Shown here: one piece after another, positions 23,612 to 64,000 of the stretch
How positions within the stretch are numbered: the stretch's first letter is position 1
How the letters are laid out: every line of letters starts with the position of its first letter
DNA from: an uncultured delta proteobacterium
GTDB lineage: Bacteria; Desulfobacterota; Binatia; UBA9968
Assembly (NCBI GenBank): GCA_963760795.1
Contig: CAVXEP010000017.1
Span: forward strand, 32,001 to 96,000
Reading direction: 5' to 3'
DNA: 64,000 nt
The notes under the pieces: generated by a model
The model's input: the letters and a program-made list of their open reading frames with translations, nothing else
What the model was told of the DNA's origin: nothing
Database searches by the model: none
Position numbers and translations under genes: made by a program

Positions 23612-25154
23612 CGTTCTTGCGCTCCGCGCTGACACCGGATTGGGCAGCCACCGGTATGACTGGCATGGTGAAGATTCGTTTCAAATTAACGTCCACCGCC
23701 GGCTGCATGCGGCTCAAGAACGGCTGCGGATAGACACCCATGTAGAGGATCAAGAAAATGATCGGCGCTAAAATGACCCATTCCCGGCAATTTAGATCTT
23801 GCAGCTTTTGATTCTCCGGGTTGTTGAGCGGTCCGAAGATCACCCGGCGAAACATCCACAGCATATAGATCGCGCCAAGAATCACGCCGGTGGCGGCCAC
23901 CGCGGTCCAGCGCGGGGTCACGCTAAACGATCCGAGCAAGATCAGGAACTCGCCGACGAAACCGTTCAGGCCAGGCAGCCCGATGGACGAAAAGGTCACG
24001 ACCAGAAGCAAAGCTGAAAACACCGGCATCTGTTTCCACAGCCCGCCAAACTCCACGATCATCCGCGTATGGCGGCGGTCGTAGATCATGCCGACCATGA
24101 GAAACAGCGCGCCGGTGGACAGGCCATGGCTGAGCATTTGATAGATGCTGCCCTGCACGCCCTGCATGTTGAGGGCGCAGAGTCCGAGCATGACGAAACC
24201 CAAATGGCTGACCGACGAATAGGCGACGAGCTTCTTAATGTCGCTCTGCATCATCGCCACCACCGCGCCGTAGATGATGCCGATGACCGACAGGGCGACC
24301 AGGTAGGGCATCAGCGCGATCGCCGCGTCGGGAAAGAGCGGCATGGCGAAGCGCAAAAAGCCGTAGGTGCCGAGCTTCAACAGCACGCCGGCAAGAATCA
24401 CCGATCCGGCGGTGGGTGCCTCCACATGGGCGTCAGGAAGCCAGGTATGAAACGGAAACAGCGGGACCTTGATAGCGAACGACAACGCGAAAGCGAGGAA
24501 CAGCCAGGTTTGCTGCTCAACCGGCAGATGCAGGTCATAGAGTTGCAAGACATCGAAGGTCAGCACCTGGGTGACCTGGGCGTGGCGTGTGGCCAGATAA
24601 ATAATCGCCACCAGCATGAGCAAACTGCCGGCCATGGTGAACAGGACGAATTTCACCGCCGCATAGATGCGCCGCGTGCCGCCCCACACACCGATCAAAA
24701 AATACATCGGCACCAGCATCACTTCCCAGAAGACATAGAACAGCACCAGATCGAGCGCTAAGAACGCGCCAAGCATGCCGGTTTCCAAGAGCAGCATAAA
24801 AATCAAATACTCTTTGACCTTGTCGCGCACCGACCAGGAAGCCAACAGCGCCAGCGGCATGAGAAAAGTCGTGAGCAAAACCAGAAAAATGCTGATGCCG
24901 TCGATGCCGAGAATATATTGAATGCCAAAGGCCGGCATCCACGCCACCCGCTCGACCAGCTGCATCTCGCCATTAGTGCCGTCGAAGCGGTCGAGAATTT
25001 TTAGCGACCAGAGAAACGCCACCGCGCTGGCGAGCAATGCAAAGGAGAACAGCCCGGCCGACTGGCGCCGCGGCAAAAACACTAACACCGCCGCGCCGAT
25101 CACCGGGATGGCGAGTAGCAGAGTCAAATCTCCGAAACCCTGGGCTGACATCAT
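23601..25154 (-). CDS. nuoM: NADH-quinone oxidoreductase subunit M
   Basis: FWEVMLVPMY, KVPLFPFHTWLPDAHVEAPTAGS, KKLVAYSSVSH. Confidence 0.97.
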   Translation of the reverse strand: MMSAQGFGDLTLLLAIPVIGAAVLVFLPRRQSAGLFSFALLASAVAFLWSLKILDRFDGTNGEMQLVERVAWMPAFGIQYILGIDGISIFLVLLTTFLMPLALLASWSVRDKVKEYLIFMLLLETGMLGAFLALDLVLFYVFWEVMLVPMYFLIGVWGGTRRIYAAVKFVLFTMAGSLLMLVAIIYLATRHAQVTQVLTFDVLQLYDLHLPVEQQTWLFLAFALSFAIKVPLFPFHTWLPDAHVEAPTAGSVILAGVLLKLGTYGFLRFAMPLFPDAAIALMPYLVALSVIGIIYGAVVAMMQSDIKKLVAYSSVSHLGFVMLGLCALNMQGVQGSIYQMLSHGLSTGALFLMVGMIYDRRHTRMIVEFGGLWKQMPVFSALLLVVTFSSIGLPGLNGFVGEFLILLGSFSVTPRWTAVAATGVILGAIYMLWMFRRVIFGPLNNPENQKLQDLNCREWVILAPIIFLILYMGVYPQPFLSRMQPAVDVNLKRIFTMPVIPVAAQSGVSAERKNDGR

Positions 25155-27053
25155 GACAGTTGTCCGAGGTAGTAGGCGAGCAGCGCCAGGGCGCCGACCA
25201 AAAACATCGCCGCGTAGTGCTGTACGTTACCGGTCTGCAAACCGCGCCAGACGGTGCTAAAACCGCGCACCGTGGCGGCCAGGCCATTGACCGCGCCGTC
25301 GATCACCCAAGGATCGACGATGCTGGCGAAAAATTTCGCCAGCGCGGTGAACGGACGGACGAAAACAAAATCGTAAATTTCGTCGACGTAATATTTGTTA
25401 AGCGAAATGTCGTAGAAAATGCCGTTGGCTGTCTGCTGCGCGGTCTGCGCCCCAGGCTTACCGTACATGAGGTAAGCGAGATAAATTCCCGCGGCCACCA
25501 CGGCCAAAGTCAGGGCGGTCACCAATAATTCGGTGCTTACGGTACCATGATGTTCCGCGACCGCGCCAAAGGTCGGCGCTAGCCAATGGTCCCAACGGCT
25601 GCCCCAGAGATATTCCGGCGCGCCCAACCAGCCGGTGAAGATCGAACCGACGGCAAGAATCATCAGCGGCCAAGTCATCACCGCCGGCGATTCATGCAGA
25701 TGCGCCTTGGCATGGTCATCGGCGCGGCACTCGCCGTGAAAGACCATGAATAGTTGACGAAACATGTAAAACGCGGTCATGCCCGCGGTGATTAGCCCGA
25801 CGCCCCACAAGATTCCTGCGCCATGGCTGAAGGTCTGCCAGAGAATCAAATCTTTGGAGAAAAAACCGGCGGTGAACGGCACCCCGGCGATCGCCAGCGT
25901 GGCGACGACATAGGTCCAGTAGGTCTTGGGCATATGCGTCTTGAGGCCGCCCATCTTGCGCATATCCTGCTCGCCGCCGAGGGCGTGGATCACACTGCCC
26001 GAACCCAAGAACAGGCAAGCTTTGAAAAATGCATGGGTGAAGACATGAAAGATCGCCGCGCCAAAGGCGCCCATGCCGACGGCGAGAAACATGTAACCCA
26101 ACTGGCTCACCGTCGAGTAGGCCAGGACTTTCTTAATATCGTTCTGGGTCAGCGCGATGGTGGCGGCGAAAAATGCCGTCGCCGCGCCGATCACGGCGAT
26201 CACCGCCAAGGTCGCCGGCGCCAAGGCGAAGAGAAAATGCAGCCGCGCCGTCATATAGACGCCGGCGGTGACCATGGTGGCGGCGTGAATCAACGCGCTC
26301 ACCGGCGTCGGCCCAGCCATGGCATCGGGCAGCCAGACGAACAGCGGTAGCTGCGCCGATTTGCCGGTGGCGCCGATAAAAAGCAGAAAGGTAATCAACG
26401 TGATCGTGCCGGGTTGCAGCAGCTTCACATGCCTGCTGCAATTCGACGAAGTCCAAAGTCCAAATGCCCTGGCGGCCCAACTCCGCCACCAAAACGAAAA
26501 TGCCGAGGATGAAACCCAAGTCGCCGATGCGGTTGACGATGAACGCTTTATTGCCGGCGATGGTATTGTTGTGATCGTGGTACCAGAAGCCGATCAAAAG
26601 ATAAGAACAGAGACCGACGCCCTCCCAGCCGACAAACAGCAAGAGCAGATTGTCGCCCATGACCAGCACAAGCATGAAAAAGATAAACAGGTTGAGGTAG
26701 ATAAAAAAGCGCACCATGTCCGGGTCATGGCCCATGTAACCCAAGGAATAGAGATGGATTAAAAAACCGATGCCGGTGACGATGAGCAGCATCACCGCCG
26801 TCAGGGCATCGACTTGAAAGGCGAGATTGACCTGAAAAGAGCCCGACTGAATCCAGGTATAAACCAGATCGCGAAAAATTCCCGTTGCCGGCAGCTGCCA
26901 AAATATATAGAAAGCCAGCGCGAACGATGCGCCCACCGCCGCCGACGCCAGAGCGCCGGCAGTTTGCTTGCCCAGGGCGCGGCCAAAGAACAAATTGATC
27001 ACGCTGCCCAACAGCGGAATCAGCGGAATCCAGCGCAGCAGATCGGTGCTCAT
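25151..27053 (-). CDS. nuoL: NADH-quinone oxidoreductase subunit L (frameshift near 26430)
   Basis: GWEGVGLCSYLLIGFW, GKSAQLPLFVWLPDAMAGPTP, HAFFKACLFL. Confidence 0.95.
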
Positions 27054-27071
27054 ACAGGTTTTGACTAGTCT

Positions 27072-27374
27072 CTACCATTTGAGCAGCTGCATCTCCTGGG
27101 GATCCAAAGATTGGCGATGGCGATAGACGGATATGATGATGGCAAGGCCGATCACAGCTTCAGCGGCGGCCACCGCCATGACGAAAAACACCGCCACCTG
27201 GCCGTCGGTCGAGCCCAGATAGCGTGAGAACGCGATAAAAGTCAGGTTGACGGCGTTGAGCATGAGCTCGATGGACATGAGAATGACGATCAGATTGCGC
27301 CGGATCAGCACGCCGACGACGCCGATGGCGAAGACCACCGCGCTTAGAATCAGATAGTAATGCAGCGCAATCAT
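27072..27374 (-). CDS. nuoK: NADH-quinone oxidoreductase subunit K
   Basis: [28 protein letters not shown]. Confidence 0.97.
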
Positions 27375-27379
27375 GGAAC

Positions 27380-27874
27380 TCAATTTTCTCGCTTGGCCAA
27401 AACCACCGCGCCGATGATCGCCACCAGCAACAACACCGAGGCGATTTCGAAGGGCAGAACAAAATCACTGAACAAACTTTTAGCCAACATTTCGGGACTG
27501 CCGAACAACTCCGTGGCCGCCACCGGATCGGCCGGCAAATCGTTGATCATCACCAAAGGCACCAACACACCGGCCAACATCAGCGCGAGCATTGTGCCGA
27601 AGCCCCACCATAGGCCGCGCTGCCGTTCCAGCGCGGCCGGGTTGAGAAGCATGATGACGAAAAGAAACAAGACCATGATTGCGCCGGCATAGACCATCAC
27701 CTGCAACACCCCGACCATGGGCGCCTGCAAAGTGACGAACAACACCGCGATCAAGAGCAGCGCCGAAACCAGCGCCATGGCGCAGTGCACGACGTTGCGC
27801 AAAAACACCACCAGCAGCGACGCGATCACCAGCAAGGTGGCCAACAGGTAGAAAATCAGACTCGCGGTATCCAT
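27380..27874 (-). CDS. nuoJ: NADH-quinone oxidoreductase subunit J
   Basis: [32 protein letters not shown]. Confidence 0.96.
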
Positions 27875-38870: not shown

Positions 38871-40352
38871 TCACAGCCCCTGGGCCGCCGCGTTTCTGCC
38901 AGCCAATCGGGAAAACACCACATTGCGCGTCTGACCGGTGCAGGACGGATAGTTATGAAAAAACAAACCGACGATGTCGCCGGAAGCGAATAGCCCGCGG
39001 ATCGGATTGTTCGAAGTGTTGAGCACCTGGGCTTGGGTATTGATCTGCAAGCCGCCGAAAGTGAATGTAACACCGCCGGTAATCGCGTAGGCGAAGTAGG
39101 GCGGTTTGTCGAGGGTATCGGCCCAGTGGGATTTTTTCGGCGTGATGCCCTCGGTGCAGCGGCCGTCCAGTTTGGTCGCATCGAACGGGATGTCTTTGCG
39201 GATGGCACCGTTGAACTCGTCGATGGTCCGCTTGAGAATCATCGGCTCAATGCTGATCTTCTGCGCCAACTCTTCAATCGTGTTCGCTTCGATGGGATGG
39301 GAAAATTCGTAATAGCGCTTGTTCAAAAGCCCCAGCGCCTTCTGATCGTAGATTTGATAGGCGATGGCACCCGGCTGCGCGAGCACCGCCCAACCGGTCT
39401 TGGCGTAGGTGTAGGAATGGCGCGCTTCGCCCTCGTCGAAAAAGCGCTGGCCGAGAGAATTGACGGTGATGCCGTAGGTGTAGCCGTAGCGATTGGCCTT
39501 GTTGCTGATCTCGACATCGGGAAAGGTCGCGTCGATCGGCGTCGCATGGGCGCCCTGCCAATGGCCGGCGGTTTTGGCGCCCATGTCGATGGCCATCATC
39601 AGCACTTCGCCGGTATCATGCTTGCTGCCGCGCACCTTCATCAGATCGGCGTTGGGGCCGAGATAGCGCGCCCGCTTCTCCGCGCTCGCCTGGAATCCGC
39701 CGGCGCACAGAATCACCGAGTTGGCGCGAATTTCATACTCTTCGTTGGGATCCGAGACACGCACACCCTCGATTCGCCGGTCGTTGCCGAGCAGCGCCGC
39801 AACCCGCGACTCGTAGCGCAGCTCGATGCCCATCTTGGTGGCGATCTCGCGCCACTGCATGAGTTGATCCAGTCCGCCCTCAACGCCGCCGCGCGGATGG
39901 ATCACCATCCCCGGTTCGAAGTAATATTTCCCGTCGATGATCACATAGCTGTCGATGTCCCATTTGATGCCGACTTCGCGCATCCAATGGATCGCCGCGG
40001 TGGACTGCGTCACCAAGACCTCGGACAGTTCTTTGCTGATCCGTCCCTTGGTCACCCGCTGCAGATCGGCGTGAAATTGTTCCGCGGTATAGGCCGGGAT
40101 ATGCAGCTTGGCGAACAGCTCTTCGTCCATGTCCGGCAGGAACTTGCGAATCTCCTCCGGGCCGGAAAACACCCAGCGAAAACCGGTGTGCGAATAACGC
40201 GCGTTGCCGCCGAACTCCGGCTCCGGCGCCTTCTCCAACATCACGACTTTAGGCGCGCCCGCTTGCTTCGCCGCCACCGCCGCTTCAAAGGCGGCGCTGC
40301 CGCCGCCGACAACTACCACCGGGATGTCTTCCGTTCTCACGAGTTCCTCCAT
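38871..40352 (-). CDS. FAD-dependent oxidoreductase, TcuA/CobZ (tricarballylate dehydrogenase)-like, copy 2
   Basis: VVVGGG, GGNARYS, LCAGGF, GQRFFDEG, GVTFTFGG, GLFFHNYP. Confidence 0.85.
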   Translation of the reverse strand: MEELVRTEDIPVVVVGGGSAAFEAAVAAKQAGAPKVVMLEKAPEPEFGGNARYSHTGFRWVFSGPEEIRKFLPDMDEELFAKLHIPAYTAEQFHADLQRVTKGRISKELSEVLVTQSTAAIHWMREVGIKWDIDSYVIIDGKYYFEPGMVIHPRGGVEGGLDQLMQWREIATKMGIELRYESRVAALLGNDRRIEGVRVSDPNEEYEIRANSVILCAGGFQASAEKRARYLGPNADLMKVRGSKHDTGEVLMMAIDMGAKTAGHWQGAHATPIDATFPDVEISNKANRYGYTYGITVNSLGQRFFDEGEARHSYTYAKTGWAVLAQPGAIAYQIYDQKALGLLNKRYYEFSHPIEANTIEELAQKISIEPMILKRTIDEFNGAIRKDIPFDATKLDGRCTEGITPKKSHWADTLDKPPYFAYAITGGVTFTFGGLQINTQAQVLNTSNNPIRGLFASGDIVGLFFHNYPSCTGQTRNVVFSRLAGRNAAAQGL

Positions 40353-40462: not shown

Positions 40463-41929
40463 CTATAGCCCCTGCGCCGCCGCGTTCCTTCCGGCCAAGC
40501 GCGAAAACACCACATTGCGCGTCTGTCCGGTGCAGGACGGATAGTTGTGGAAGAACAGACCAACGATATCGCCGGAGGCGAACAGGCCGCGAATCGGATT
40601 GCCGGAAGTATTTAACACCTGCGCCTGCGTATTGATCTGCAAGCCGCCGAAAGTGAATGTCACCCCGCCGGTTATCGAAAACGCCCAGTAAGGCGGCTTG
40701 TCGATTGGACTAGCCCAGTTGGATTTTTTCGGCGTGATGCCCTCAGTACACTTGCCGTCAAGTTTGGTCGCATCGAAGACGACATCCTTGCGCGCCGCGT
40801 TGTTGAATTCCGTGACGGTGTGTTTGAGCACGGTGGGCTCGATGCCGATCTTGCCGGCCAGCTCGTCAATTGATTTCGCTTCTATAGGCGTGGAGAACTC
40901 GTAACGGTTGCCAAGCAGCGGAATCGTCTTCTGATCGTAGATTTGATACGCCAACGCGCCAGGCTGACCGAGCACGGCCCAACCGGTCTTAGCGTAAGTA
41001 TATGAATGGCGCGCTTCGCCTTCGTCGAAAAAGCGCTGCCCCAGAGTATTGACCGTGATGCTGTAAGGATAACCGTAACGATTGGCTTTGCTGCCGATCT
41101 CCACGTCGGGATAGGTCGAATCGATCGGCGTCGCGTGGGCGCCTTGCCAATGACCGGCGGCCTTGGCGCCCATGGCCAATGTCATCATCAGCACTTCGCC
41201 GGTGTCATGCCGGCTGCCGCGCACCTTCATCAAATCGGCATTGGGCCCAAGATAGCGCGCGCGCATTTCCGCATTGGCCTGAAAGCCGCCGGCGCAAAGA
41301 ACGATTGAGCCGCTTTTGATTTCGTATTCTTCGTTGGGGTCGGAGACCACGACACCTTCGATATGCCGGTCGTTGCCGAGTAACGCTTTGACCCGCGACT
41401 CGTAGCGCAGGTCGACACCCATGCCCAGCGCGATCTCGCGCCATTGTCCCAATTGGCCCAGTCCGCCGCCGACACCGCCGACCGGATGGACCACCAATCC
41501 CGGCTCGAAATAATAGCGGCCGTCGATCACCACATGACTATCGATCTCCCACTTGATGCCCAACTCGCGCATCCAATGAATCGCCGCGTTGGACTGGCTC
41601 ACCAGCACGTCGGCTAAAGTCTGGTCGATGCGGCCGCGCGTGACCCGCTGCAAATCGCCGTGAAAGAGTTCCGCTGAATAGGCCGGCAAATTCAGTTTCG
41701 CAAACATCGCGTCGTCGACATCCGGCAAAAATTGGCGGATCTCATCGGCGCCGGAAAACACCCAGCGAAAGCCGGTGTGTGAATAGCGCGCGTTGCCGCC
41801 AAACTCCGGCTCCGGCGCTTTTTCCAACATCACGACTTTCGGCGCGCCGGCTTGCTTGGCCGCCACCGCCGCTTCAAAGGCGGCACTGCCGCCGCCGACA
41901 ACCACTACGTGAATGTTTTCCGTTCTCAC
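40463..41929 (-). CDS. FAD-dependent oxidoreductase, TcuA/CobZ-like, copy 1
   Basis: Same motifs as its neighbour; colinear tandem paralog. Confidence 0.85.
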   Translation of the reverse strand: MRTENIHVVVVGGGSAAFEAAVAAKQAGAPKVVMLEKAPEPEFGGNARYSHTGFRWVFSGADEIRQFLPDVDDAMFAKLNLPAYSAELFHGDLQRVTRGRIDQTLADVLVSQSNAAIHWMRELGIKWEIDSHVVIDGRYYFEPGLVVHPVGGVGGGLGQLGQWREIALGMGVDLRYESRVKALLGNDRHIEGVVVSDPNEEYEIKSGSIVLCAGGFQANAEMRARYLGPNADLMKVRGSRHDTGEVLMMTLAMGAKAAGHWQGAHATPIDSTYPDVEIGSKANRYGYPYSITVNTLGQRFFDEGEARHSYTYAKTGWAVLGQPGALAYQIYDQKTIPLLGNRYEFSTPIEAKSIDELAGKIGIEPTVLKHTVTEFNNAARKDVVFDATKLDGKCTEGITPKKSNWASPIDKPPYWAFSITGGVTFTFGGLQINTQAQVLNTSGNPIRGLFASGDIVGLFFHNYPSCTGQTRNVVFSRLAGRNAAAQGL

Positions 41930-41978
41930 GGTGCAAAATTCTCCATCTTCGATGACAATTACTATAGCGAGTGAATCA

Positions 41979-49131: not shown

Positions 49132-49133
49132 GC

Positions 49134-49930
49134 TTACTCTTTGTACAGCCCTTCCTTCTTGATCTGCTGATACACACCCTCGAAGAACCAGGCGAAGTAG
49201 GCCGTGCCCATGCGCATGCAATACTCCAGGTTGAAGCCAGGGCGCGTCTCGGCCTTGCCTTCGATGAGCAGGTTCTTCAAAACCATCCAGTCCAAGATCG
49301 GCATGCGCCATGATGCCGTCATGTTCTTCCAAATCGGCCTTGGCGTGGACGCGAAAGTAGACGATCTTTTCTTCGGGGAAATTATAAACCTTGCGCAGCG
49401 TCGTACCGAAGAAGCGCGCCCAATGGCCGACGGCTTCCTCGACGCAAAACGACGCCCACCACTCGACCATGGTGCCCTCGTAGAGGACGCCGCGGTAGTA
49501 CTCCAGGAACGCGCGGCACTCGGCGAGCATTTCGTATTCGACCATCTCATCGTCGTTGAGTCCGAAGTTGCGTCCCTGTTCGAGGACGATCTGAATATGG
49601 CCGGGCGGCTTGGGATGCATCATCTCGTCGGCCACATGGGCGGCGAAATGCTTTTGCAGCTCCGGATGGCGCTTGAAAAACGGCAGAGTGGCGCTGGTAG
49701 GCGACACCGTGGAAATTATTGATCTCGGCGACAAAGCCGTGCCAGTTCTGCCAGAAGATTTTGATCGCCTCCATCGGCAGTGTGCCGTTGCCCATGTCGG
49801 TGTGGAAACGACCTTTGATCAGCCAGCGGTCGGCTATGTCGAGTAAATATTTCTTTAAGTCCGCGATCACTGCGTCGGCTTCCTGCGGCGAAAGTTTTTT
49901 CCCGGAAAAATCCTGTCTGCCTAGTCCCAT
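49134..49930 (-). CDS. Heme-oxygenase-like (PqqC/TenA/CADD) diiron protein; frameshifts near 49686 and 49300
   Basis: Three frames join to about 264 aa; ligand pattern DE..H..H (ADEMMHPKPPGH), VEE, H..AD..H (YFRVHAKADLEEH). Confidence 0.72.
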
Positions 49931-49988
49931 AATCCCCTCCTTAATTTAGCTCTGCCGATACCAATCTTTCCCGATTTCTGTTTCCGAC

Positions 49989-55136: not shown

Positions 55137-57860
55137 ATGCGCAGACTCGGCGGCGTGACAATATTAATATTTGTTCTTGTCGTAATGTTCTTTCGCCAGG
55201 CAATCGGGCTGTATGTCGATTGGTTGTGGTTCCAGGACGTTGGCTACGGCCCGCTCTTTGGAACGATCTTATTTTATAAGTTCGCACTTGGCGCTTCTGC
55301 CGGCACGCTTCTCGCGTTGCTCATTTACGTCAATTTGAAGATCGCCTCTTCGTCAACGGGCGGATTTCGCTACTCCAGCGCGGAAAACATTATCGAGCTG
55401 CCGCCACCGGAACTGATCGATCCAATTCTTAAGCGGCTGCTTCTGCCCGGCGCCCTGCTCGTCGGCCTCATGGCCGCGCCCCAAGGGGCGGCCAATTGGG
55501 AACAACTCTCGCTGTTTGTCAACTCGACATCGTTCAATCTGCAAGATCCCCAGTTTGGCCGCGATGTCGGTTTTTATGTGTTTGTTTTGCCCTGGCTGCA
55601 AATTGTCTATCACTGGGCGATTTTCGCCATCGGTGTCACCGCGGTTGCCAGCGCCGCTGTCTACTTGGTCTATCGGGGCATTGAGTACACAGCACGCGGC
55701 CTTTTTCTCGGCGAACGCGCGCGCAGTCATCTGTTGATCTTGTTGGGTTTGTTTCTATTGATCAAAGCCTGCGGTTACTACCTAGACGCCTTCGATCTGT
55801 TGCATTCGCCGCGCGGCGTTTCCTTCGGCGCGAGCTATGCCGACATCTATGGCACCCTTCCAGCGCTCCGCGTGCTGACGTTTCTGGCACTCATTGCGGC
55901 GGCGCTCTGCTTTGTGCAGATAGCCCGCACCGGCTATAAATTCGTCTTCCTCGGCGTTGGCGCCTTGGTGGCAGTCCACTTATTGGGTCTCAATGCTTAT
56001 CCGACGCTCTTGCAACGCTTCCGTGTCACGCCCAATGAAATCGAGGCGGAACGGTCGTTCATCGAGCGCACCATTAAATTCACCCGGCTCGCCTTTGGCC
56101 TGGATAAGATTGAAACCAAGGAGTTTCCCGCCGATGAGCAGTTAACAGCCGCCGACTTGAAGCGCAATGAATCGACCATCAGTAATATCCGCCTATGGGA
56201 CCATCGGCCGCTCCTGACCAGCTACGCCCAGCTCCAGGAGATCCGGCCTTATTACAAGTTCATCGATGTCGACAATGACCGTTACATCATCGACGGCACC
56301 TTTCGGCAGGTGATGTTGTCCGCTCGCGAGCTGTCACATCGCCATTTGCAAAGTCAAAACTGGATCAACGAGCATCTGACTTTCACCCATGGCCATGGCG
56401 TGGTCTTTGGACCGGTGAATCAGGTGACCTCCAGTGGTCAGCCCGAGTTTTTCATCAAAGATATTCCGCCGCTGGCGACCACTTCGCTGAAAATCACCCG
56501 CCCCGAGATCTACTACGGCGAACTCGCCAATGAGTATGTACTCGTCCAGACCAAATCCCAGGAATTGGACTACCCCTCTGGCGATCAGAATATATACACC
56601 ACATACAAAGGAAAAGGCGGCGTGGCGATCGGCAGCTTCTGGCGCAAGTTGGTTTTCGCGGCGCACCATACGTCCATGCGCATCCTGCTATCCCAGGATC
56701 TCACCGGCGAAAGCCGGATACTTTTCCATCAGAAGATCCAGGAGCGGGTGAAGAAAATCGCGCCGTTTGTCACCTTCGATACTGACGCCTATATCGTCAT
56801 CGCCCAAGGCGGCAGGTTATTCTGGATTATTGACGGCTATACCAATTCGGCCCGCTATCCCTATTCCGCACCACTGAGCCGGCAAGGGATGAATTATATT
56901 CGCAACTCCGTCAAGGCGGTCGTCGACGCCTATAACGGCACGGTGGAATTTTATCTGAGCGATCCAGCGGATCCGATCATTCAGTCGTTCGCCAAGACTT
57001 TCCCGCAAGTGTTTAAACCTCTCGAAACCATGCCCGAGGATCTGCGCGCCCATGTGCGTTATCCCCAGGATCTCTTCACGATCCAAGCCCATGTCTATGC
57101 CACCTACCATATGCAGGACCCACAGGTCTTTTTTAACAAGGAGGATCTCCTGAGCATCCCGCGGCGCACGATAGAAGGCCGCGAGCGCGATATGGAGCCC
57201 TACTACACGATCATGCGCCTGCCAGGAGAGGAGAAGGAAGAATTCATTCTGCTCTTACCGTTCACGCCGAATAAACGCGACAACATGCGCTCCTGGCTGG
57301 CGGCGCGCAGCGATGGAAAAAACTACGGCAAGTTAACCGCGCTGGAATTTCCCAAAGCGAAATTGGTCTATGGCCCCAAACAGATTGATGCGCGCATCGA
57401 CCAGGATACCATCATCTCCCAACAATTGACGCTGTGGAGCCAGCGCGGCTCGCAGGTGCTCCGCGGCAGCCTACTCGCCATCCCCATCGAGAAGTCCTTG
57501 CTCTACGTGCAGCCGCTCTATTTGGCCGCGGACCAAGGCTCATTGCCGGAATTGAAACGGGTAATTGTCGCCTTCGGTAACCGCATCACTATGGAAGAAA
57601 CGCTCGATCAAGCCCTGCAAAGCATCTTTGGCGCTAAGCCAGCGGTGGCGCCAGAGGCGCTGCCACAGCCCGCCAGTGCAGCGGTATTGCCACCGCCCGT
57701 CAAAGGGGATCCATCGCTATCGCGCCAGGCGTTGGATCATTTCCAGCGCTCCCAGGAACTACTCAAACAAGGCAACTGGGCTGGCTATGGCGAGGAGCTG
57801 AAGAAAGTCGAGGCCCTGCTCAAAGAAATGCAAAAGGGCCGTGAGTCCGAGGCGAAATAA
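55137..57860 (+). CDS. UPF0182 family membrane protein
   Basis: DWLWF, DPQFGRDVGFY, NIRLWD, YTHG-like FTHG, NYIRNSVKAVVDAY, YVQPLY. Confidence 0.93.
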   Translation: MRRLGGVTILIFVLVVMFFRQAIGLYVDWLWFQDVGYGPLFGTILFYKFALGASAGTLLALLIYVNLKIASSSTGGFRYSSAENIIELPPPELIDPILKRLLLPGALLVGLMAAPQGAANWEQLSLFVNSTSFNLQDPQFGRDVGFYVFVLPWLQIVYHWAIFAIGVTAVASAAVYLVYRGIEYTARGLFLGERARSHLLILLGLFLLIKACGYYLDAFDLLHSPRGVSFGASYADIYGTLPALRVLTFLALIAAALCFVQIARTGYKFVFLGVGALVAVHLLGLNAYPTLLQRFRVTPNEIEAERSFIERTIKFTRLAFGLDKIETKEFPADEQLTAADLKRNESTISNIRLWDHRPLLTSYAQLQEIRPYYKFIDVDNDRYIIDGTFRQVMLSARELSHRHLQSQNWINEHLTFTHGHGVVFGPVNQVTSSGQPEFFIKDIPPLATTSLKITRPEIYYGELANEYVLVQTKSQELDYPSGDQNIYTTYKGKGGVAIGSFWRKLVFAAHHTSMRILLSQDLTGESRILFHQKIQERVKKIAPFVTFDTDAYIVIAQGGRLFWIIDGYTNSARYPYSAPLSRQGMNYIRNSVKAVVDAYNGTVEFYLSDPADPIIQSFAKTFPQVFKPLETMPEDLRAHVRYPQDLFTIQAHVYATYHMQDPQVFFNKEDLLSIPRRTIEGRERDMEPYYTIMRLPGEEKEEFILLLPFTPNKRDNMRSWLAARSDGKNYGKLTALEFPKAKLVYGPKQIDARIDQDTIISQQLTLWSQRGSQVLRGSLLAIPIEKSLLYVQPLYLAADQGSLPELKRVIVAFGNRITMEETLDQALQSIFGAKPAVAPEALPQPASAAVLPPPVKGDPSLSRQALDHFQRSQELLKQGNWAGYGEELKKVEALLKEMQKGRESEAK

Positions 57861-57881: not shown

Positions 57882-59870
57882 TCAGCCTATGTGCGGGTTA
57901 GTGTGGTAGCGGCCACTGACAAGCAGATCCTCGGCGCTACGCAAGATCGCTAAGCCGTCTTCGGTCCGCTCTGCCTGCGTTGCGCTCATCGCCATTTCTG
58001 ACCATGGCGTGCCACGAGCCGCGCGCTCATAAGCAATCCGGTCGCCGGACTCGCGCAGGACAATCAGCTCACGATCCGTGACCATGCCGTAGCGCTTCTT
58101 GTTGTAAATCACCATGGCGGCCGGAGCTTCGGCTGGCTCCTTGAGCACATCGCGGCCGAAAAATGTGCTGCGGTATGCGCCGCCGACCATGCCCATGACC
58201 GTCGGCGGTAAGTCCATCTGACTGGTTACCGCGCCGATGCGCCCCGCCGCGATATGTTTCGGCGCCAGGAACAAAGCCGGGACGATGTATTCGTCGATGG
58301 GGATGAGCTCATTGCCGCGCAAGTGCACGCCATGATCGCCGACAAAGACAAATAACGTATCATCGAAGTAGGGCGCCTGGCGCGCCGCGCGAATAAATTG
58401 ACCGACACAGAAGTCGGCATAGAGAAAGTTATTCAACTCGGCGAGCTCAAAGCCGGGCGGCACCCTGGTATCAGCGCCAAGTGGTTTAATCTTGCCCGCC
58501 GGGAATTGCCAGGGCGAGTGCAGCGATACCGTCAACAGGGTGGCAAAAAACGGCTTCCCCGCTTCATGGTAACGGCGAAATTCCTCGCCGGCCCGTTCAA
58601 AGAGATCTTCATCCGACACACCCCAAGGGCTTTTGTAGTGCGGCGCGGAGAAATCTTTTTCCTCGATAAAGCGATCGAAGCCGTTACCGAGAAAGAAAGC
58701 CAGCATGTGATCGAAAATCCCCTGGCCGCCGTAGAAAAAACTCGTCGCATAACCGCGCTCACGCAGCACACTCGCCAAGGTCAAAAAATTTTGCCGCGCC
58801 TGCGGCCGTTTGACCACCCCTTCGCCGGGAAGTGGTGGAAACGAACAGACCGCGGCTTCGAGGCCTTGGATGGTTCGCTCTCCGGTGGCGTAGCAGCGTT
58901 CCAACAGCAGGCCTTCTTCAGCGAGTTTGTCTAGTTCCGGTGAAAGCGCCGGCACACCGCCAAGACATCCGGTCAGCCCTCCGGTAAAACTCTCCATCAC
59001 GACTAACACCACGTTGAGCGGCGCGGCCTTCGCCGCATTGGTAATTCGCCGCACCAGAGGATTCGGCCCGTCGTCGGTGAATTGACAGCCCTCAGCTAAA
59101 ATTTTGCGGGACCGCTCAATCGCTCGCTCGGCGGATGGTAGTTGGGTCACGCTCTTAAGCGCCGTGAATTCATTTTTAGCGCGTTGACTCCACTCGTAGA
59201 GCAGATTGAAAATCCCGCAACAGGCGATCTCGTTGGCGATCCGATTGGTTGTAAACGACGCCAGACTGGGATTGAGCGGCCGATGATCGAAGGTGCCGCG
59301 GCTAGCGAAGCCGACGACAAGAAGCCAGAGTAGAGTCATAACGCGATCCGACAACCACAGGAAATCACTTCTGGCGTTGCCCTCCGCCACTGGAGCTAGA
59401 AACTGTACCGCAATCACTGCCAACCAAGCGCCGATCCCGCTCAGCAAGAAAATGCGCACTAAGGGATAGGCTTTGGCGACGGTCTTGAGCACCTCGCGAT
59501 CGGCTCCATGTTCGAAGACCAGATAATTGGGTCGGAAATCATAAAAGCGAAAGAAGAAACTGCCGGCGATCTCGGCGAAAAATAGTGTGAAGTAAAGAAC
59601 GCTGAGGTAGAGCCCAAAGAAAAACTGACTTGCAACAAGGAGATCGCCAGGCAACGTCAGCGCGGCAACCACCAGCGGCAGGCAGCCTCGGCTGACGATC
59701 ACGGCGTCCAACCGGAAACCGATCCAAAATAGTTTTAACTTTTGCCGGCGGTTCAGCTCTTTGACATCGGCGCGCCGTTCCCAATAGAGCCACAGGCGAA
59801 ACCCGGTCAAAATGAGCGCGGCAACAAGGCAAATGGCGACGGCTAAGGTCGTGCGCGGCAGTTCAAACAT
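57882..59870 (-). CDS. LTA synthase (LtaS/MdoB) family sulfatase-fold membrane protein
   Basis: About 5 N-terminal TM helices, NVVLVVMES, catalytic Thr in ERTIQG, SLHSP, GDHG, SQMDLPPT. Confidence 0.9.
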   Translation of the reverse strand: MFELPRTTLAVAICLVAALILTGFRLWLYWERRADVKELNRRQKLKLFWIGFRLDAVIVSRGCLPLVVAALTLPGDLLVASQFFFGLYLSVLYFTLFFAEIAGSFFFRFYDFRPNYLVFEHGADREVLKTVAKAYPLVRIFLLSGIGAWLAVIAVQFLAPVAEGNARSDFLWLSDRVMTLLWLLVVGFASRGTFDHRPLNPSLASFTTNRIANEIACCGIFNLLYEWSQRAKNEFTALKSVTQLPSAERAIERSRKILAEGCQFTDDGPNPLVRRITNAAKAAPLNVVLVVMESFTGGLTGCLGGVPALSPELDKLAEEGLLLERCYATGERTIQGLEAAVCSFPPLPGEGVVKRPQARQNFLTLASVLRERGYATSFFYGGQGIFDHMLAFFLGNGFDRFIEEKDFSAPHYKSPWGVSDEDLFERAGEEFRRYHEAGKPFFATLLTVSLHSPWQFPAGKIKPLGADTRVPPGFELAELNNFLYADFCVGQFIRAARQAPYFDDTLFVFVGDHGVHLRGNELIPIDEYIVPALFLAPKHIAAGRIGAVTSQMDLPPTVMGMVGGAYRSTFFGRDVLKEPAEAPAAMVIYNKKRYGMVTDRELIVLRESGDRIAYERAARGTPWSEMAMSATQAERTEDGLAILRSAEDLLVSGRYHTNPHIG

Positions 59871-59895
59871 CTGGCTGGTGCGAGCTCCGAGCTAT

Positions 59896-61293
59896 TTACA
59901 TGCCAAACAGCGAAAAAAACAACCGTGCCCGCTCGGCGATAGTGAGAGGAGCGACGACATTCCAAAAATTGATGACGGCGAAAAAAGTCCAAACGCAGGC
60001 GATGCGTCGCAGGCTGCGTAACTTGCTCGCTGACTCGGTTTGCGCCGCTGGCGGCCGGCTGCGTTGGCGCTGTTGGCGTAGCATCGAGATGGCGATGCCG
60101 GCAGCAAGCAAGGCGCAATAGATCAAGCGCGCCCCCAGTAGCGACCAGAGTCTATGCCAGTCGCCGGCAACCAATTGCTCTTTGTGCTGCAAGAGGTGAT
60201 AGTACATGTTGCCGACGAAGGCCGCGGCAAAAACCGCGGCGACTAGCCGCAACATCGGTGAGTGACGAAAGTAGCGCGCGTAGAGCGGCAGAAAGAAGCT
60301 CTCCATCATCAACTCTTTGAAATAGTAATAATAGCGGTTCCAGAACTCTACGACAGTTTGCGCCAGTAGCGGCTTGTAAGTATTGCGAAAAATATTGAAG
60401 CCAAACAGCCGGATCACGCCGACCCAGACATGCCCCTTGGCCGCCAGCGAAAGCGTCTCCCAGACCAGCTCCAGATAAAGGCTGAACCATACTTGGACCA
60501 GCGGGAACGCCAGTTGTCTGCTGAGGATTTGCTTCACCCGCGGCAGACCGAAAGTGTAATCATAAAACAGCGCGCTGAAAGGACTTTTCGGATCGCCGTA
60601 TATCAGGGCCGCGATCAGTTCCAAAACTACCTTCCACAACGCCACCAGGAGCAAGAGCTTAAACCCGCCGAGTATCGTCCGCGCATAGCTGTCCGGCGTC
60701 TGCGCCACGGTGCGCGACAAATAATCATGACCCTTTGCCAGGAGGCGTATTGGTGCCATCCCAGATCGGCCAAATGTAAAATAAGTGATCGCGAAAACGG
60801 CTGTTTTGCGCTTTGCCGCGTTGACCCGACAAAAGCATGTAGCCCGTACGCCAGATCAAGTAGGGAAACGATAGCGCAATCACTGATAGAACCGCGACGA
60901 CGAATCCATCACTGGGCGGCAAACCACAGCAACGCGAGGAGCAGCCAGAAAATTAAATGAAAAAATATTTGTGGCCGGCGGCGCATCATCGGCGGCAACT
61001 GCTTGAAACGTAACCGTGGCGAGATAAAGAGCGAAAAGAGACCGAGCAGAATCAAGAAACGCCAGACCATGCACTAACCAAGGCGCCAGGGCGCGATAGT
61101 CGTGCCATTTCGCGTTGCGGCTAAAGATGCCGACCAGCCCGGCGACTATAGCGCCGAAAAAAAGCATCGATTTGCGTCGTTCCGGCGTCAGCCAAATCAC
61201 CCAGGGTTGGCCGCTCAGCCAGGCGATCAACCGGTCATTTTCATGGAATTGCGAAATACTTCGGTAAGCCGTACGCAGGGCGGTGAGATTCAT
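59896..61293 (-). CDS. Divergent MBOAT-like membrane-bound O-acyltransferase; several frameshifts between about 60740 and 61050
   Basis: Polytopic; FRNTYKPLLAQTVVEFWNRYY corresponds to the MBOAT N..P.....FW.RW motif; His in GNMYYH. Confidence 0.65.
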
Positions 61294-61551
61294 GACGCCG
61301 CTTCGCGGGCAATTAAATCGAGGATGGAATTGACCGAGCGCAGATCTTCCGGGTCGATGCCTCGCTCGCTGAAGTCGACTCCATAGGACCTGCTCCAAGT
61401 AGGTGACGATCTGCAGCAGCGCCAACGAATCGATCAAACCAGACTCGACCAGGCCGGACTGTTCGTCGATGGCCGCGTGCGCATAATCTGGTCTTTGGAT
61501 CGTCCGTAAAAAATCGATCAGCTCTTGTCGGCTTCGTTCCCGGTCCGTCAT
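61290..61551 (-). CDS. Acyl carrier protein; frameshift near 61385
   Basis: GLIDSLALLQIV.YLE phosphopantetheine motif; restored end ...DLRSVNSILDLIAREAAS*; ATGA overlap with the next gene. Confidence 0.85.
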
Positions 61552-63137
61552 CGTAAACTTCCAAGTATTAGTTTTGTCAAAACAGCGGCGTTGCTGCTGG
61601 CGTCACGAACCACGCCGTAACAGTCCAACCAAGTCCACAGGTGCAATGACGCGCACAGTTCCTGCACCGTCGCACGGCTCACCTTGCCCCGCGAGTTTTG
61701 CGGCAGCGCGTCGACGACATACCAGCGCTGGGGAATTTTAAACTCCGCCAAATGCTCTTTGAGCCAGCCATGGAGCTGGCGCAGGGTCGCGTCATCCTGA
61801 CGGCTCAAGACCACCGCCATGGCGACGTTCTGACCGTAGGCCGGATCGGCGATGGCAAAAGTACATACCGCGGTGGCAGGCTCGAACCGTTCGACCACGG
61901 CGTCGACATCGGCGGGATAGACTTTAGCGCCGCCTTTATTGATTTCGTCCCGCTCGCGCCCCTTGAGATAGAATCTGCCGCGATCGTCGATAAGCCCCAT
62001 GTCGCCGCTGACGAACCAGCCGCCCGAAATCACCTGATCGGTGAGTTCCGGCTGACCGCAATAGCCTTGCATCAGCGCCGGCGTGTTGATCCAGACATAG
62101 CCCGTCTCAGCGACTTTGCACTCGGCACCGTCGGCAAACGGCGTCTGCGGTTCGGCGTTTTTGAGAATTTTGATCACCGCACCCCAAGGCACACCGACTA
62201 GGCCATCTTCCGGTTCGAAGTCTTCAATGCTCGTGCCGGCCACCCAACTGCCCGTTTCAGTAATACCGTAGGCGTTATAAACCGCGCGGATTCCCGACCA
62301 TTGTTGAATCTGACCCCATAGGTGCGCTGATAACGGCGCCGAGCCGCAATGAATGCGCTGGAGGGTTTTGCCCTGCGGTGGCTTACTGCCCTTCAAGCTC
62401 AACCCCCACATGGATGGCACGGAGGAGAGAAACGTAATCTTCTGCTCATCGACGATGGGCCCTAAGCGTAGGAGTAAATACGGACTGAATGGCTGCGCGA
62501 TGATCACATCCTGGCCGAAGAGCCAAGGAAACAAACTGTTACAGATCAAGCCATGACCGAAATGGGTCGGCAACAAACATAGCGTGCGGCGAAAGCAATC
62601 GATACCGAGACTCTGGCGTAAACACAGCCAACGCGCGCGTAATGACCGATGAGTGTGAACCACGCCTTTGGGCACTCCGGTGGTGCCGGAGGTAAACAGG
62701 ATCAACGCCTCATCGTCGAGCCGCGCGGCGCAGAATGCACTGGCCGACGACACCGATGTTACCGCATCCGCCGCCAAGTCGCTCGAACTGAGGAGCTTAA
62801 CTCCCAGCGCAGCCAGCGCGTCACCAAGAGCCATGGGCACCGTCGCATCGATGAGCGCGATCTTGGGCGTCACCGTCCGCGCTAAGTTTTCGACTTCAAA
62901 CGGCGTCAACCGGTTGTCCACTGGCACAACGCTCGCCCCGACGTTCCACGCAGCCAGCAGGTCGACAAAGAATTCGAGATTGTTGCCGTAAAGGATGAAC
63001 ACGCGATCGCCACGCTGTAAACCATGGGCGCGCAGCCGGGCGGCGCTGGCCGCTAAACGCATGGCGATCTCTTGGCTGCTCCAGCTGCGGCCCGATTCCA
63101 GCTCGCTCAGAGCACCGCATGTCAAATCGGCAAACAT
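61548..63137 (-). CDS. Class I adenylate-forming enzyme (acyl-CoA/acyl-ACP ligase)
   Basis: FTSGTTGVPKG, YGITE, SGDMG, KGR..D.I.KGG, LPQNSRGKV; the extreme C-terminus may be frameshifted. Confidence 0.92.
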   Translation of the reverse strand: MFADLTCGALSELESGRSWSSQEIAMRLAASAARLRAHGLQRGDRVFILYGNNLEFFVDLLAAWNVGASVVPVDNRLTPFEVENLARTVTPKIALIDATVPMALGDALAALGVKLLSSSDLAADAVTSVSSASAFCAARLDDEALILFTSGTTGVPKGVVHTHRSLRARWLCLRQSLGIDCFRRTLCLLPTHFGHGLICNSLFPWLFGQDVIIAQPFSPYLLLRLGPIVDEQKITFLSSVPSMWGLSLKGSKPPQGKTLQRIHCGSAPLSAHLWGQIQQWSGIRAVYNAYGITETGSWVAGTSIEDFEPEDGLVGVPWGAVIKILKNAEPQTPFADGAECKVAETGYVWINTPALMQGYCGQPELTDQVISGGWFVSGDMGLIDDRGRFYLKGRERDEINKGGAKVYPADVDAVVERFEPATAVCTFAIADPAYGQNVAMAVVLSRQDDATLRQLHGWLKEHLAEFKIPQRWYVVDALPQNSRGKVSRATVQELCASLHLWTWLDCYGVVRDASSNAAVLTKLILGSLR

Positions 63138-63276
63138 GAAGGCTAAATATTCCTGAATACTAAACTATTTTGTAACAACCCCGGCCGAACCAAGCAAGGC
63201 GAATCGCTCCGATAACGGCATGCCCGGCGCAACGCGGCTCTCGTCTTTGGAAACAATAGTTGCTATAAAGCGCCGG

Positions 63277-64000
63277 ATGAGCGATCAGCGCCGCCGGCTC
63301 GTCATACGCGGGGCCATCTTCATCGGCCTCATGTTGCTGCTGTTTTTTTTCAGCCGCTACATTCCGCGGCCGTTTAGCGCTTTCGCGCCTCCCGGCGCCG
63401 AGCTCGACGATTTCGAGGGCATCTATTCCAGCAGCGATAAGCTCGGCAAGTTTCTGCAACAGCTGGGCCCCTATTCGCCGGCGGTCTTCGTGGTGTTGCA
63501 AATCCTCCAAGTGATAGCCGCACCGTTTCCGGGGGAGCTTACTGGGGTCGCCGGCGGCATTGTCTACGGCGAAACCATCGGCTTCATCCTCTCCATTGTC
63601 GGCCTGGCCATCGGTTCCTGGGTAGCTTTCGAATTGGCGAGTATACTCGGCCGGCCATTTGTCGAACGCTTCGTTAAACGCGATGTCTTGGAGAAGTTTA
63701 ATTTCCTCACCACCAAGACCGGTGTGTTCATCTGCTTCGTGCTGTTTCTGTTTCCCGGCTTTCCCAAAGATTATCTTTGCTACGTGCTTGGCTTGAGCCG
63801 AATGAGCGTAACTACCTTCCTGCTGGTATCGATCATCGGGCGAATTCCCGGTACCTATTGGCTTACTATGCAGGGAGCGATGATCAGAAATGAGCAGTAC
63901 CTCACCTTCGCGATTTTCGTCGGCGTCACTCTCGTTGGCTTGGTAATCGGCTATATATATCGCAATCAAATCTTCGCTTGGATCAAGCACCGCCACGATC
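63277..64000 (+). CDS. TVP38/TMEM64 (VTT/DedA) family membrane protein, running off the window
   Basis: LQVIAAPFPGE, G..YG...G, LFPGFPKDYLCYVLGLS, GRIPG. Confidence 0.9.
   Translation, partial: MSDQRRRLVIRGAIFIGLMLLLFFFSRYIPRPFSAFAPPGAELDDFEGIYSSSDKLGKFLQQLGPYSPAVFVVLQILQVIAAPFPGELTGVAGGIVYGETIGFILSIVGLAIGSWVAFELASILGRPFVERFVKRDVLEKFNFLTTKTGVFICFVLFLFPGFPKDYLCYVLGLSRMSVTTFLLVSIIGRIPGTYWLTMQGAMIRNEQYLTFAIFVGVTLVGLVIGYIYRNQIFAWIKHRHD

Follow-up and report, generated by a model that had tools for sequence, protein, structure and literature searches.

A four-gene cassette joining a predicted divergent MBOAT-type membrane protein to an LtaS/OpgB-like enzyme in uncultured soil diderms: a candidate system for carrier-dependent acylation of the cell envelope

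The subject of this analysis is a four-gene cassette on the minus strand, at positions 57882-63137, of a stretch of 64,000 nucleotides from an uncultured delta proteobacterium (Desulfobacterota, Binatia, UBA9968; assembly GCA_963760795.1, contig CAVXEP010000017.1, positions 32,001 to 96,000); this whole stretch is called the window below, and the genome it belongs to G000. The cassette encodes an acyl-AMP ligase, an acyl carrier protein (ACP), a polytopic membrane protein and an enzyme resembling LtaS and OpgB. On balance, we favour the interpretation that it is an accessory unit for carrier-dependent acylation of a molecule of the cell envelope, in which a divergent MBOAT would work together with a phospho-alcohol transferase on one target. 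The gene identities, the MBOAT fold, the conservation of the catalytic residues, the linkage of the genes and their gain or loss as a unit are directly supported by the observations described here.

All four genes of the operon proposed for this place by the first-pass annotation are indeed present and share the minus strand, but two of them, the ACP gene and the membrane gene, are not open in the window. Frames were compared with those of the sister genome G003, which has 87.7% DNA identity to the window and is collinear with it throughout, and in which all four genes are open (ligase 511 amino acids, carrier 86, membrane protein 465, LtaS-like enzyme 659). The ligase, of the ANL type, occupies 61548..63137 as an open reading frame (ORF) of 529 amino acids matching PF00501 (E = 1e-57) and PF13193; its C-terminal tail is out of frame from about 61645, with indels relative to G003 at 61645, 61600 and 61572, and homology places the true stop near 61603, corresponding to about 511 amino acids, so the greater length of the ORF is due to the tail frameshift. 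The ACP gene (61290..61551, about 86 amino acids) is, according to three-frame translation, broken by one extra base near 61389, its N-terminal half lying in the frame of the ATG at 61551 and its C-terminal half in another frame that ends with the TGA at 61292-61290. The gene for the predicted divergent MBOAT-fold acyltransferase (59896..61293, 465 amino acids when intact) shows, by the same kind of translation, frame changes near 61011, 60919-60921 and 60737, with in-frame stops, and additionally holds a compensated indel pair at 61053/61040. The gene for the LtaS/OpgB-like enzyme of the alkaline-phosphatase superfamily (57882..59870, 662 amino acids; PF00884, E = 3.6e-43) is intact. The broken pieces of the ACP and membrane genes have no Pfam or NCBIfam match in the window, and the identities of these genes therefore rest on the intact G003 copies.

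The tight spacing described by the first-pass annotation is likewise partly genuine. The ATGA overlap between the ACP stop and the start of the membrane gene (61293-61290) and the 25-nt gap before the LtaS-like gene occur both in the window and in G003, but the ATGA overlap between ligase and ACP results from the tail frameshift, the two genes being separated in G003 by 52 nt. A scan for promoters and terminators in the G003 locus (L011:4200-9800) yielded nothing above shuffled sequences.

The intact membrane protein of G003 has no Pfam match even at E ≤ 1 and no NCBIfam match. None of the 67 aligned members of its family (alignment A1) matches the Pfam models MBOAT (PF03062) or MBOAT_2 (PF13813) at E ≤ 0.1, and the A1 profile retrieved no MBOAT from the PDB sequences. 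The family comprises 659 clusters at E ≤ 0.001, 433 at 1e-10 and 182 at 1e-30 among 1.84 billion representatives searched; its closest 120 members in a collection of 5.8 billion have no precomputed Pfam domain and, where named at all, are "hypothetical protein" from Binatia or deltaproteobacterial metagenome-assembled genomes. The nearest cluster in the ESM Atlas (score 0.98) carries the automatic name "MBOAT family protein", with no common Pfam family. Further comparisons agree with that name. When 301 genomes of the phylum were scanned with the A1 profile, the two proteins retrieved, from G193 and G148, proved to be genuine PF03062 members (E = 2e-32 and 4.5e-24), and hhalign aligned A1 with one of these two canonical MBOATs at a probability of 96.1% (E = 2.9e-9) and with five canonical MBOATs at 96.6% (E = 5.6e-10, 378 columns). 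The AlphaFold2 model of the G003 copy, built on A1, has a predicted local distance difference test score of 93.3 and a predicted template modelling score of 0.91; its best 26 matches in a Foldseek search of the PDB are all MBOATs, with DltB on top (E = 7e-7), and in VIA-align DltB reaches Z 22.1 (363 residues, root-mean-square deviation 4.2), followed by MBOAT7, PORCN, LPCAT3, HHAT, DGAT1 and ACAT at Z 10.7-18.2, the first non-MBOAT scoring 6.0. Because the profile retrieves PF03062 proteins, hhalign links the alignments and the predicted structure matches MBOATs, we assign the protein to the MBOAT superfamily, a prediction in which fold, profile homology and the position of the catalytic His concur; the MBOAT fold expected by the first-pass annotation is thus borne out by the model, with DltB as the nearest solved structure.

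The conserved residues of the family show what is shared with canonical MBOATs and what is not. None of the 67 sequences departs from His366, and hhalign pairs this residue, in a part of its alignment that has low confidence, with the WHG His of the five canonical MBOATs. The position of the His of the FWRRWH motif is occupied by a run of four Tyr, the fourth of which (Tyr324) is invariant in all 67 sequences, and Arg320, Lys326 and Glu327 are invariant as well. According to the available part of PMC12148441, an SGNH protein is the regular partner of bacterial MBOATs, and an FXYXXF motif, located on the MBOAT C-terminus or on DltX, provides a Tyr that shuttles the acyl group. In the cassette family, F.Y..F was found within the last 12 residues of 0 of the 67 members, the C-terminus instead showing a motif of its own, F[FL][LF]SLFG.

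The ligase appears, from its sequence, to resemble acyl-CoA synthetases rather than DltA, as had been proposed on first reading. The motif AYGITETGS is visible in its translation, and its A4 region (…PTHFGHG…) is presumably of the acyl-CoA-synthetase type, lacking the Asp that binds an alpha-amino group. Among the NCBIfam matches listed, FadD-type, MenE and malonyl-CoA ligases are closest, all below their cut-offs, and among the PDB matches listed, FadD13, FadD5, malonyl-CoA synthetase, feruloyl-CoA synthetase and oxalate-CoA ligase; DltA is absent among the best 60 PDB and best 25 NCBIfam matches, no direct comparison with a DltA sequence having been made. The G003 carrier matches the generic PP-binding domain PF00550 (E = 2.1e-6, 28.3 bits against a cut-off of 20.8). 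It stays below the DltC equivalog models (23.8 bits against a cut-off of 68, and 16.3 against 52.35) and also far under the cut-offs of AcpP and other equivalogs. The Ser of its GLIDS motif is invariant in 58 homologues from related loci. An identity as the carrier of the OlsHI ornithine-lipid pathway was considered and rejected (30 bits against a cut-off of 130); that pathway, as described in the accessible portion of PMC12493201, uses a GH3-like enzyme.

In one clade, where the order is membrane gene, ligase, ACP, the ACP gene is followed in five loci by a PrpB-like gene of the isocitrate-lyase/phosphoenolpyruvate-mutase superfamily (L102:10160-11023, L106:7397-8236, L121:4722-5615, L099:10185-11036 and L094:5268-6122), whose start coincides with the ACP stop or lies no more than 3 nt from it, so that the two overlap or abut, and which scores 144-165 bits against a cut-off of 354. 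There is a hint here that the PrpB-like lyase may make the acid that the ligase activates, which would point to a small carboxylic acid.

The fourth protein is predicted to have N-terminal transmembrane segments and a sulfatase-fold domain facing outward: several hydrophobic segments lie between residues 4 and 186, and PF00884 follows at residues 286-563. Its best solved relative is PDB entry 3lxq (VP1736; E = 3.4e-80 over residues 193-607), followed by the lipoteichoic acid primase LtaP (4uop, E = 6.6e-19) and an LtaS chain (E = 6.3e-7). The top NCBIfam match is OpgB (E = 1.2e-22), at a score far from the equivalog level (NF009027, 80.4 bits against a cut-off of 572), and the LtaS equivalog NF053595 is missed as well (37 bits against 970); in public sources the homologues are named "phosphoglycerol transferase MdoB-like" (JGI) or "LTA synthase family protein". 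Glu290, His448, Asp509 and His510 are invariant both in a set of 10 and in a set of 29 sequences, and the nucleophile position 330 holds Thr or Ser in 10 of 10 seeds; these positions we take to be equivalent to Glu255, Thr300, His416, Asp475 and His476 of LtaS. Judged by its architecture, metal ligands and nucleophile, the enzyme appears to be of the LtaS/OpgB type (COG1368), with a conserved active site. A public protein of 490 residues (P0355), which passes from the N-terminal 369 residues of the LtaS-like protein (99% identity to G003) into a GDSL/SGNH C-terminal part, was considered as a clue to the partner of the MBOAT and set aside; both of its domains are truncated, so it probably derives from a chimeric contig.

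The linkage of the four genes was followed in 41 relatives and in a metagenome scan. At the level of orthologues, the membrane gene occurs in 9 of the 41 relatives (G000, G003, G008, G009, G013, G019, G021, G022 and G031), and a match of any kind in 11, the two further genomes giving weak matches only. The LtaS-like orthologue is found in the same nine and additionally as a fragment in the fragmented genome G002, G006 having only a paralogue of 28% identity; 31 of the 41 relatives have neither gene at this level. Wherever the contigs allow it to be read in the relatives, the order is ligase, carrier, membrane gene, LtaS-like gene. In the window the cassette lies between a convergent gene for a UPF0182 membrane protein (55137..57860, plus strand; PF03699, E = 1.2e-296) and a divergent gene for a DedA/VTT-domain membrane protein (63220..64000, plus strand, running off the window; PF09335, E = 5.2e-22), both outside it. 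In G006 and G018, members of the same genus without the cassette, the UPF0182 gene abuts the DedA gene directly, and this empty site indicates that the four genes were gained or lost as one block.

The scan of metagenomes added 79 loci, which, clustered with the genome loci at 95% membrane-protein identity, gave 84 clusters. A partner was called when a membrane-type sulfatase-fold gene scoring at least 80 with a hidden Markov model of 10 seeds lay within 3 kb, and a negative was taken as informative when at least 2.5 kb of flank was available on both sides. By these rules, a sulfatase-fold partner is present in 44 of 51 informative clusters, a count biased towards positives, for which no minimum flank was required; the flanks of the other 33 clusters are too short. 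Since genomes of 2-8 Mb contain only 0-2 LtaS-like matches at E ≤ 1e-20, chance adjacency is very unlikely. A match to the ligase and/or the carrier occurs in 69 of the 84 clusters, as counted from the locus table. The partner is arranged differently by clade: it may follow directly on the same strand, precede the ligase (L100, L103, L110), or be convergent (L064, L069, L072, L074-L076, L078) or divergent (L079), and in L102 it stands 951 bp away on the opposite strand. Six apparent "MBOAT-sulfatase fusions" of about 1100 residues (L091, L095, L105, L108, L109, L120) were rejected, the long ORF running in a different frame in 6 of 6 cases; they are off-frame extensions in DNA of high guanine and cytosine content, and what these loci actually have is an LtaS-like gene immediately downstream. 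The adjacency of the LtaS-like gene to the trio, another element of the first-pass annotation, thus holds in most informative loci and in the joint presence or absence at one site, without being universal.

The host itself is a diderm making lipopolysaccharide (LPS), as follows from the presence of LpxC (E = 8.2e-83) and LptD (E = 1.5e-20) in G000; a diderm had been thought probable from the window. In the same genome, which is 88.9% complete, no canonical Pfam MBOAT was found at E ≤ 1e-15, nor were DltD (PF04914) or MdoG/OpgG. No member of the SGNH/DltD families was found in the operon or, at E ≤ 1e-5, among 49 neighbour ORFs from 14 related loci, in line with the absence of such a partner noted at first reading.

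The following sequence of events would fit these components. The ANL ligase would adenylate a carboxylic acid other than an alpha-amino acid and load it onto the phosphopantetheine arm of the 86-residue carrier. On the cytoplasmic side, the carrier would give up the acyl group to the MBOAT-fold protein, through whose funnel the group would travel, by way of the invariant His366, until it reaches an acceptor on the outer side of the inner membrane. The LtaS/OpgB-like enzyme, with its metal-activated Thr nucleophile, would attach a phospho-alcohol head group to the same target, the most likely group being glycerophosphate from phosphatidylglycerol, and would thereby create or complete the acylated site. 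In this scheme we infer the relay from donor through carrier to MBOAT, which of the two modifications comes first, and the nature of acyl group and acceptor. An osmoregulated periplasmic glucan was considered as the target, a possibility weakened by the lack of MdoG in the 88.9%-complete host genome. The first-pass annotation had named three observations that would speak against its proposal, namely an LtaS-like gene not conserved beside the trio, a membrane protein without an MBOAT fold and a ligase activating D-alanine as in canonical Dlt; all three were checked and none was encountered, so the interpretation stands supported, while we infer its chemistry in its entirety.

Several observations weigh against the proposed carrier-dependent acylation by a linked pair of enzymes. 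Seven informative clusters have no linked LtaS-like gene, and family f32 and the locus L023 carry the trio without an LtaS-like neighbour; an LtaS-like homologue of 34-37% identity is encoded on another contig in three of the four f32 genomes (the fourth has a weak match only), and the L023 genome, too, encodes one of 34-37% elsewhere. In a paralogous clade, about 50-54% identical (L042, L064, L069, L074, L075 and L076), flanks of 2-9 kb contain neither ligase nor ACP, and the membrane protein keeps the core motifs FWNRYYYYFKEL and GNMYYH, from which it follows that the carrier is not obligatory for every member of the family. In L064, L069 and L074-L076 a convergent membrane sulfatase-fold gene of about 625 codons is present, which is lacking beside L042, a second copy in G013 (G013:C8). 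Moreover, with neither an FXYXXF Tyr nor an SGNH partner, the established mechanism of bacterial MBOATs is not simply transferable to the cassette.

The last point leads to a different, possible if rather unlikely, reading of the same genes, that of membrane-lipid remodelling, in which the MBOAT-like enzyme would acylate a lipid directly, as do the eukaryotic LPCAT3, MBOAT7, DGAT1 and ACAT. Possible substrates are a lysophospholipid, the head-group glycerol of phosphatidylglycerol or the diacylglycerol that an LtaS-type reaction leaves behind, and ligase and carrier would provide a fatty acid as the acyl group, in a manner likened to that of Aas of Escherichia coli, a known case of such supply. 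Direct transfer is made plausible by the lack of an SGNH partner and of FXYXXF, lipid-acylating MBOATs score Z 12-18 against the model, and the fatty-acid ligases FadD13 and FadD5 are the closest relatives of the cassette ligase among the matches listed; malonyl-CoA and oxalate-CoA ligases, however, match about as well, and the PrpB-like lyase gene coupled to the carrier in one clade hints at a small acid. The nearest structure, DltB, is furthermore an enzyme of a polymer pathway (at Z 22.1), and the partner is a predicted outward-facing phospho-transferase whose active site appears conserved.

It would also count against envelope acylation by the cassette, at least in G000, if the deposited frameshifts reflected a real and recent inactivation, with the ACP gene, the MBOAT-like gene and the ligase tail as recent pseudogenes and the LtaS-like gene alone functional. 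The frameshifts and in-frame stops are there in the deposited sequence, about 10 indels fall inside 900 bp (60737-61645), and the cassette is an accessory element lost in many members of the genus. Yet the window as a whole contains 37 frame changes, each inside a long frame that is open in G003, and relative to this background the rate in the operon is not exceptional; a gene of 797 codons in G003, for example, is represented in the window by several pieces. Every gene call in the window therefore needs comparison with a relative. Genes broken by single-base indels are also seen at, e.g., 25151-27500, 22297-23635 and 49132-49949. Logan contigs of 92-99% similarity, taken from four soil runs in a single study, were aligned with 59800-63200. 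Their departures from the window lie at 60731, 60910, 60914, 61012, 61038, 61054, 61385/61388 and 61643, and at these eight places every covering contig makes the same corrections as G003, i.e. shows the intact version; the contigs of all four runs insert one base behind 61643 in the ligase tail, and the contigs lack one base at 61385/61388 in the ACP gene. These contigs come from relatives and not demonstrably from the same strain, which reduces their weight against inactivation. When the window was projected onto the G003 codons, the share of synonymous changes among differing codons came to 77% in the carrier gene, 67% in the ligase gene, 62% in the LtaS-like gene and 59% in the membrane gene, whose stretch that is out of frame in the window gave 58% (overall range 58-82%), so that the substitution pattern gives no sign of relaxed constraint, the out-of-frame stretch included. 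The indels between the window and G003 are not limited to homopolymer runs, which would fit generic consensus errors of long-read metagenome assembly. Given the roughly 37 frame changes throughout the window, the intact state of the relatives at these places and the unrelaxed constraint, the frameshifts in the cassette are most likely assembly errors, and we regard inactivation as unlikely.

A bolder variant, which we consider quite improbable, would let the sulfatase-fold enzyme replace the SGNH partner altogether: the acyl group, perhaps by way of Tyr324, would be handed to its Thr/Ser or to a covalent glycerophosphate intermediate, and an acyl-glycerophosphate would be installed concertedly on LPS or another glycolipid of the outer envelope. 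If true, this would amount to a teichoic-acid-like decoration by a chemistry not known for the alkaline-phosphatase superfamily. Finally, canonical Dlt D-alanylation of a teichoic-acid-like polymer, which shares the gene logic of ligase, carrier and DltB-like protein, has DltB as the nearest solved structure and finds a weak echo in the match of the carrier to DltC models, can hardly be credited when the carrier falls far short of the cut-offs of these models, the ligase is nearest to acyl-CoA synthetases with DltA absent among the matches listed, DltD was not found in G000, there is no room for DltX and no FXYXXF, the membrane protein fails the Pfam MBOAT models and LpxC and LptD mark the host as a diderm.

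Beyond the right end of the window, the corresponding G003 locus (L011:9664-13160) contains a conserved block of DedA/VTT, BacA/UppP and ArnT-like glycosyltransferase C genes, the ArnT-like one scoring 226.6 bits against a cut-off of 567. These neighbours were considered as functional context and rejected, for G006 and G018, which have no cassette, carry them at this site too; being present whether or not the cassette is, they belong to the backbone of the genus. Elsewhere, in two loci of family f32 (L038:909-6585 and L089:941-6638), genes for an ADP-forming acyl-CoA synthetase-like protein, a class-III aminotransferase and a DsbA-like protein, together with an unassigned ORF, precede the trio, and L106 adjoins heptosyltransferase and WaaP-like genes. 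At a distance from the cassette, the adjacent window segments 38871-40352 and 40469-41930 both match L027 7133-8615 of G003, with 93% and 78% identity, and look, from their sequences, like tandem paralogous genes.

What is new in this candidate envelope-acylation cassette is the MBOAT family, the class of its partner and the absence of the shuttle motif, the Dlt-like logic being already known; in the part of the open-access and bioRxiv literature covered, this gene combination is not described. If our interpretation is true, the cassette would represent a second carrier-fed line of bacterial MBOATs beside Dlt, as measured against the available part of PMC12148441, where Dlt is the sole bacterial MBOAT pathway with a carrier protein. 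Its pairing with an LtaS/OpgB-type enzyme, and its lack of shuttle motif and SGNH partner alike, would likewise be the first case encountered here. The family is large, with its 659 representative clusters at E ≤ 0.001, has been missed by current domain libraries, and is at home here in uncultured soil diderms. Should the product turn out to be an acylated glycerophosphate on LPS or another envelope glycoconjugate, teichoic-acid-style chemistry would extend to cells of the Gram-negative type. As a defined unit of four genes, the cassette would be suited to heterologous expression.

Among known systems, the Dlt pathway of Gram-positive bacteria (DltA-DltC-DltB-DltX-DltD) is the most obvious counterpart. 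In both, an adenylating ligase, a dedicated small carrier and an MBOAT-fold protein are encoded together, and the model of the cassette membrane protein has DltB as its nearest solved structure (Z 22.1). Unlike Dlt, the cassette has a ligase that is acyl-CoA-synthetase-like among the matches listed and a partner from the alkaline-phosphatase superfamily, the His of FWRRWH is replaced in its family by the Tyr run, there is no DltD/SGNH protein, DltX or FXYXXF Tyr, and the host is a diderm with LPS genes; gaps of only 52 and 25 nt leave no place for a DltX-like ORF in the operon. The MBOAT-SGNH pairs (PatA/PatB, AlgI/AlgJ-X, WssH/I) similarly combine an MBOAT-fold protein with an extracytoplasmic enzyme for a modification outside the cytoplasm. 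According to the accessible part of PMC12148441, these pairs use an acyl-CoA donor and a C-terminal FXYXXF, the acyl group being handed to the SGNH Ser, whereas the cassette apparently uses a carrier protein as the donor, has no FXYXXF (0 of 67) and no SGNH gene among the neighbours scanned.

The catalytic domain of the LtaS-like enzyme has its closest solved relative in VP1736 of Vibrio parahaemolyticus (3lxq), an uncharacterised structural-genomics entry for which no paper mentioning the protein was found in the portion of the open-access and bioRxiv literature covered. Its combination with a membrane acyltransferase recalls OpgB (MdoB) and OpgC, in which a sulfatase-fold phospho-alcohol transferase and a membrane acyltransferase act on one periplasmic target, the osmoregulated periplasmic glucans; unlike OpgB itself, the LtaS-like enzyme scores 80.4 bits against the 572 of the model, and its host genome G000 yielded no MdoG/OpgG. 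OpgC is an acyltransferase-3 protein and not an MBOAT, and is not known to use a carrier. In Vibrio cholerae, AlmEFG modifies lipid A with glycine by means of a ligase, a carrier and a membrane acyltransferase; AlmE activates an amino acid, and AlmG is an LpxL-type acyltransferase at the cytoplasmic face. The cassette described here shares with AlmEFG the set of ligase, carrier and membrane acyltransferase and the setting of a Gram-negative envelope, and differs from it in the predicted MBOAT fold of the acyltransferase and the acyl-CoA-synthetase-like character of the ligase.

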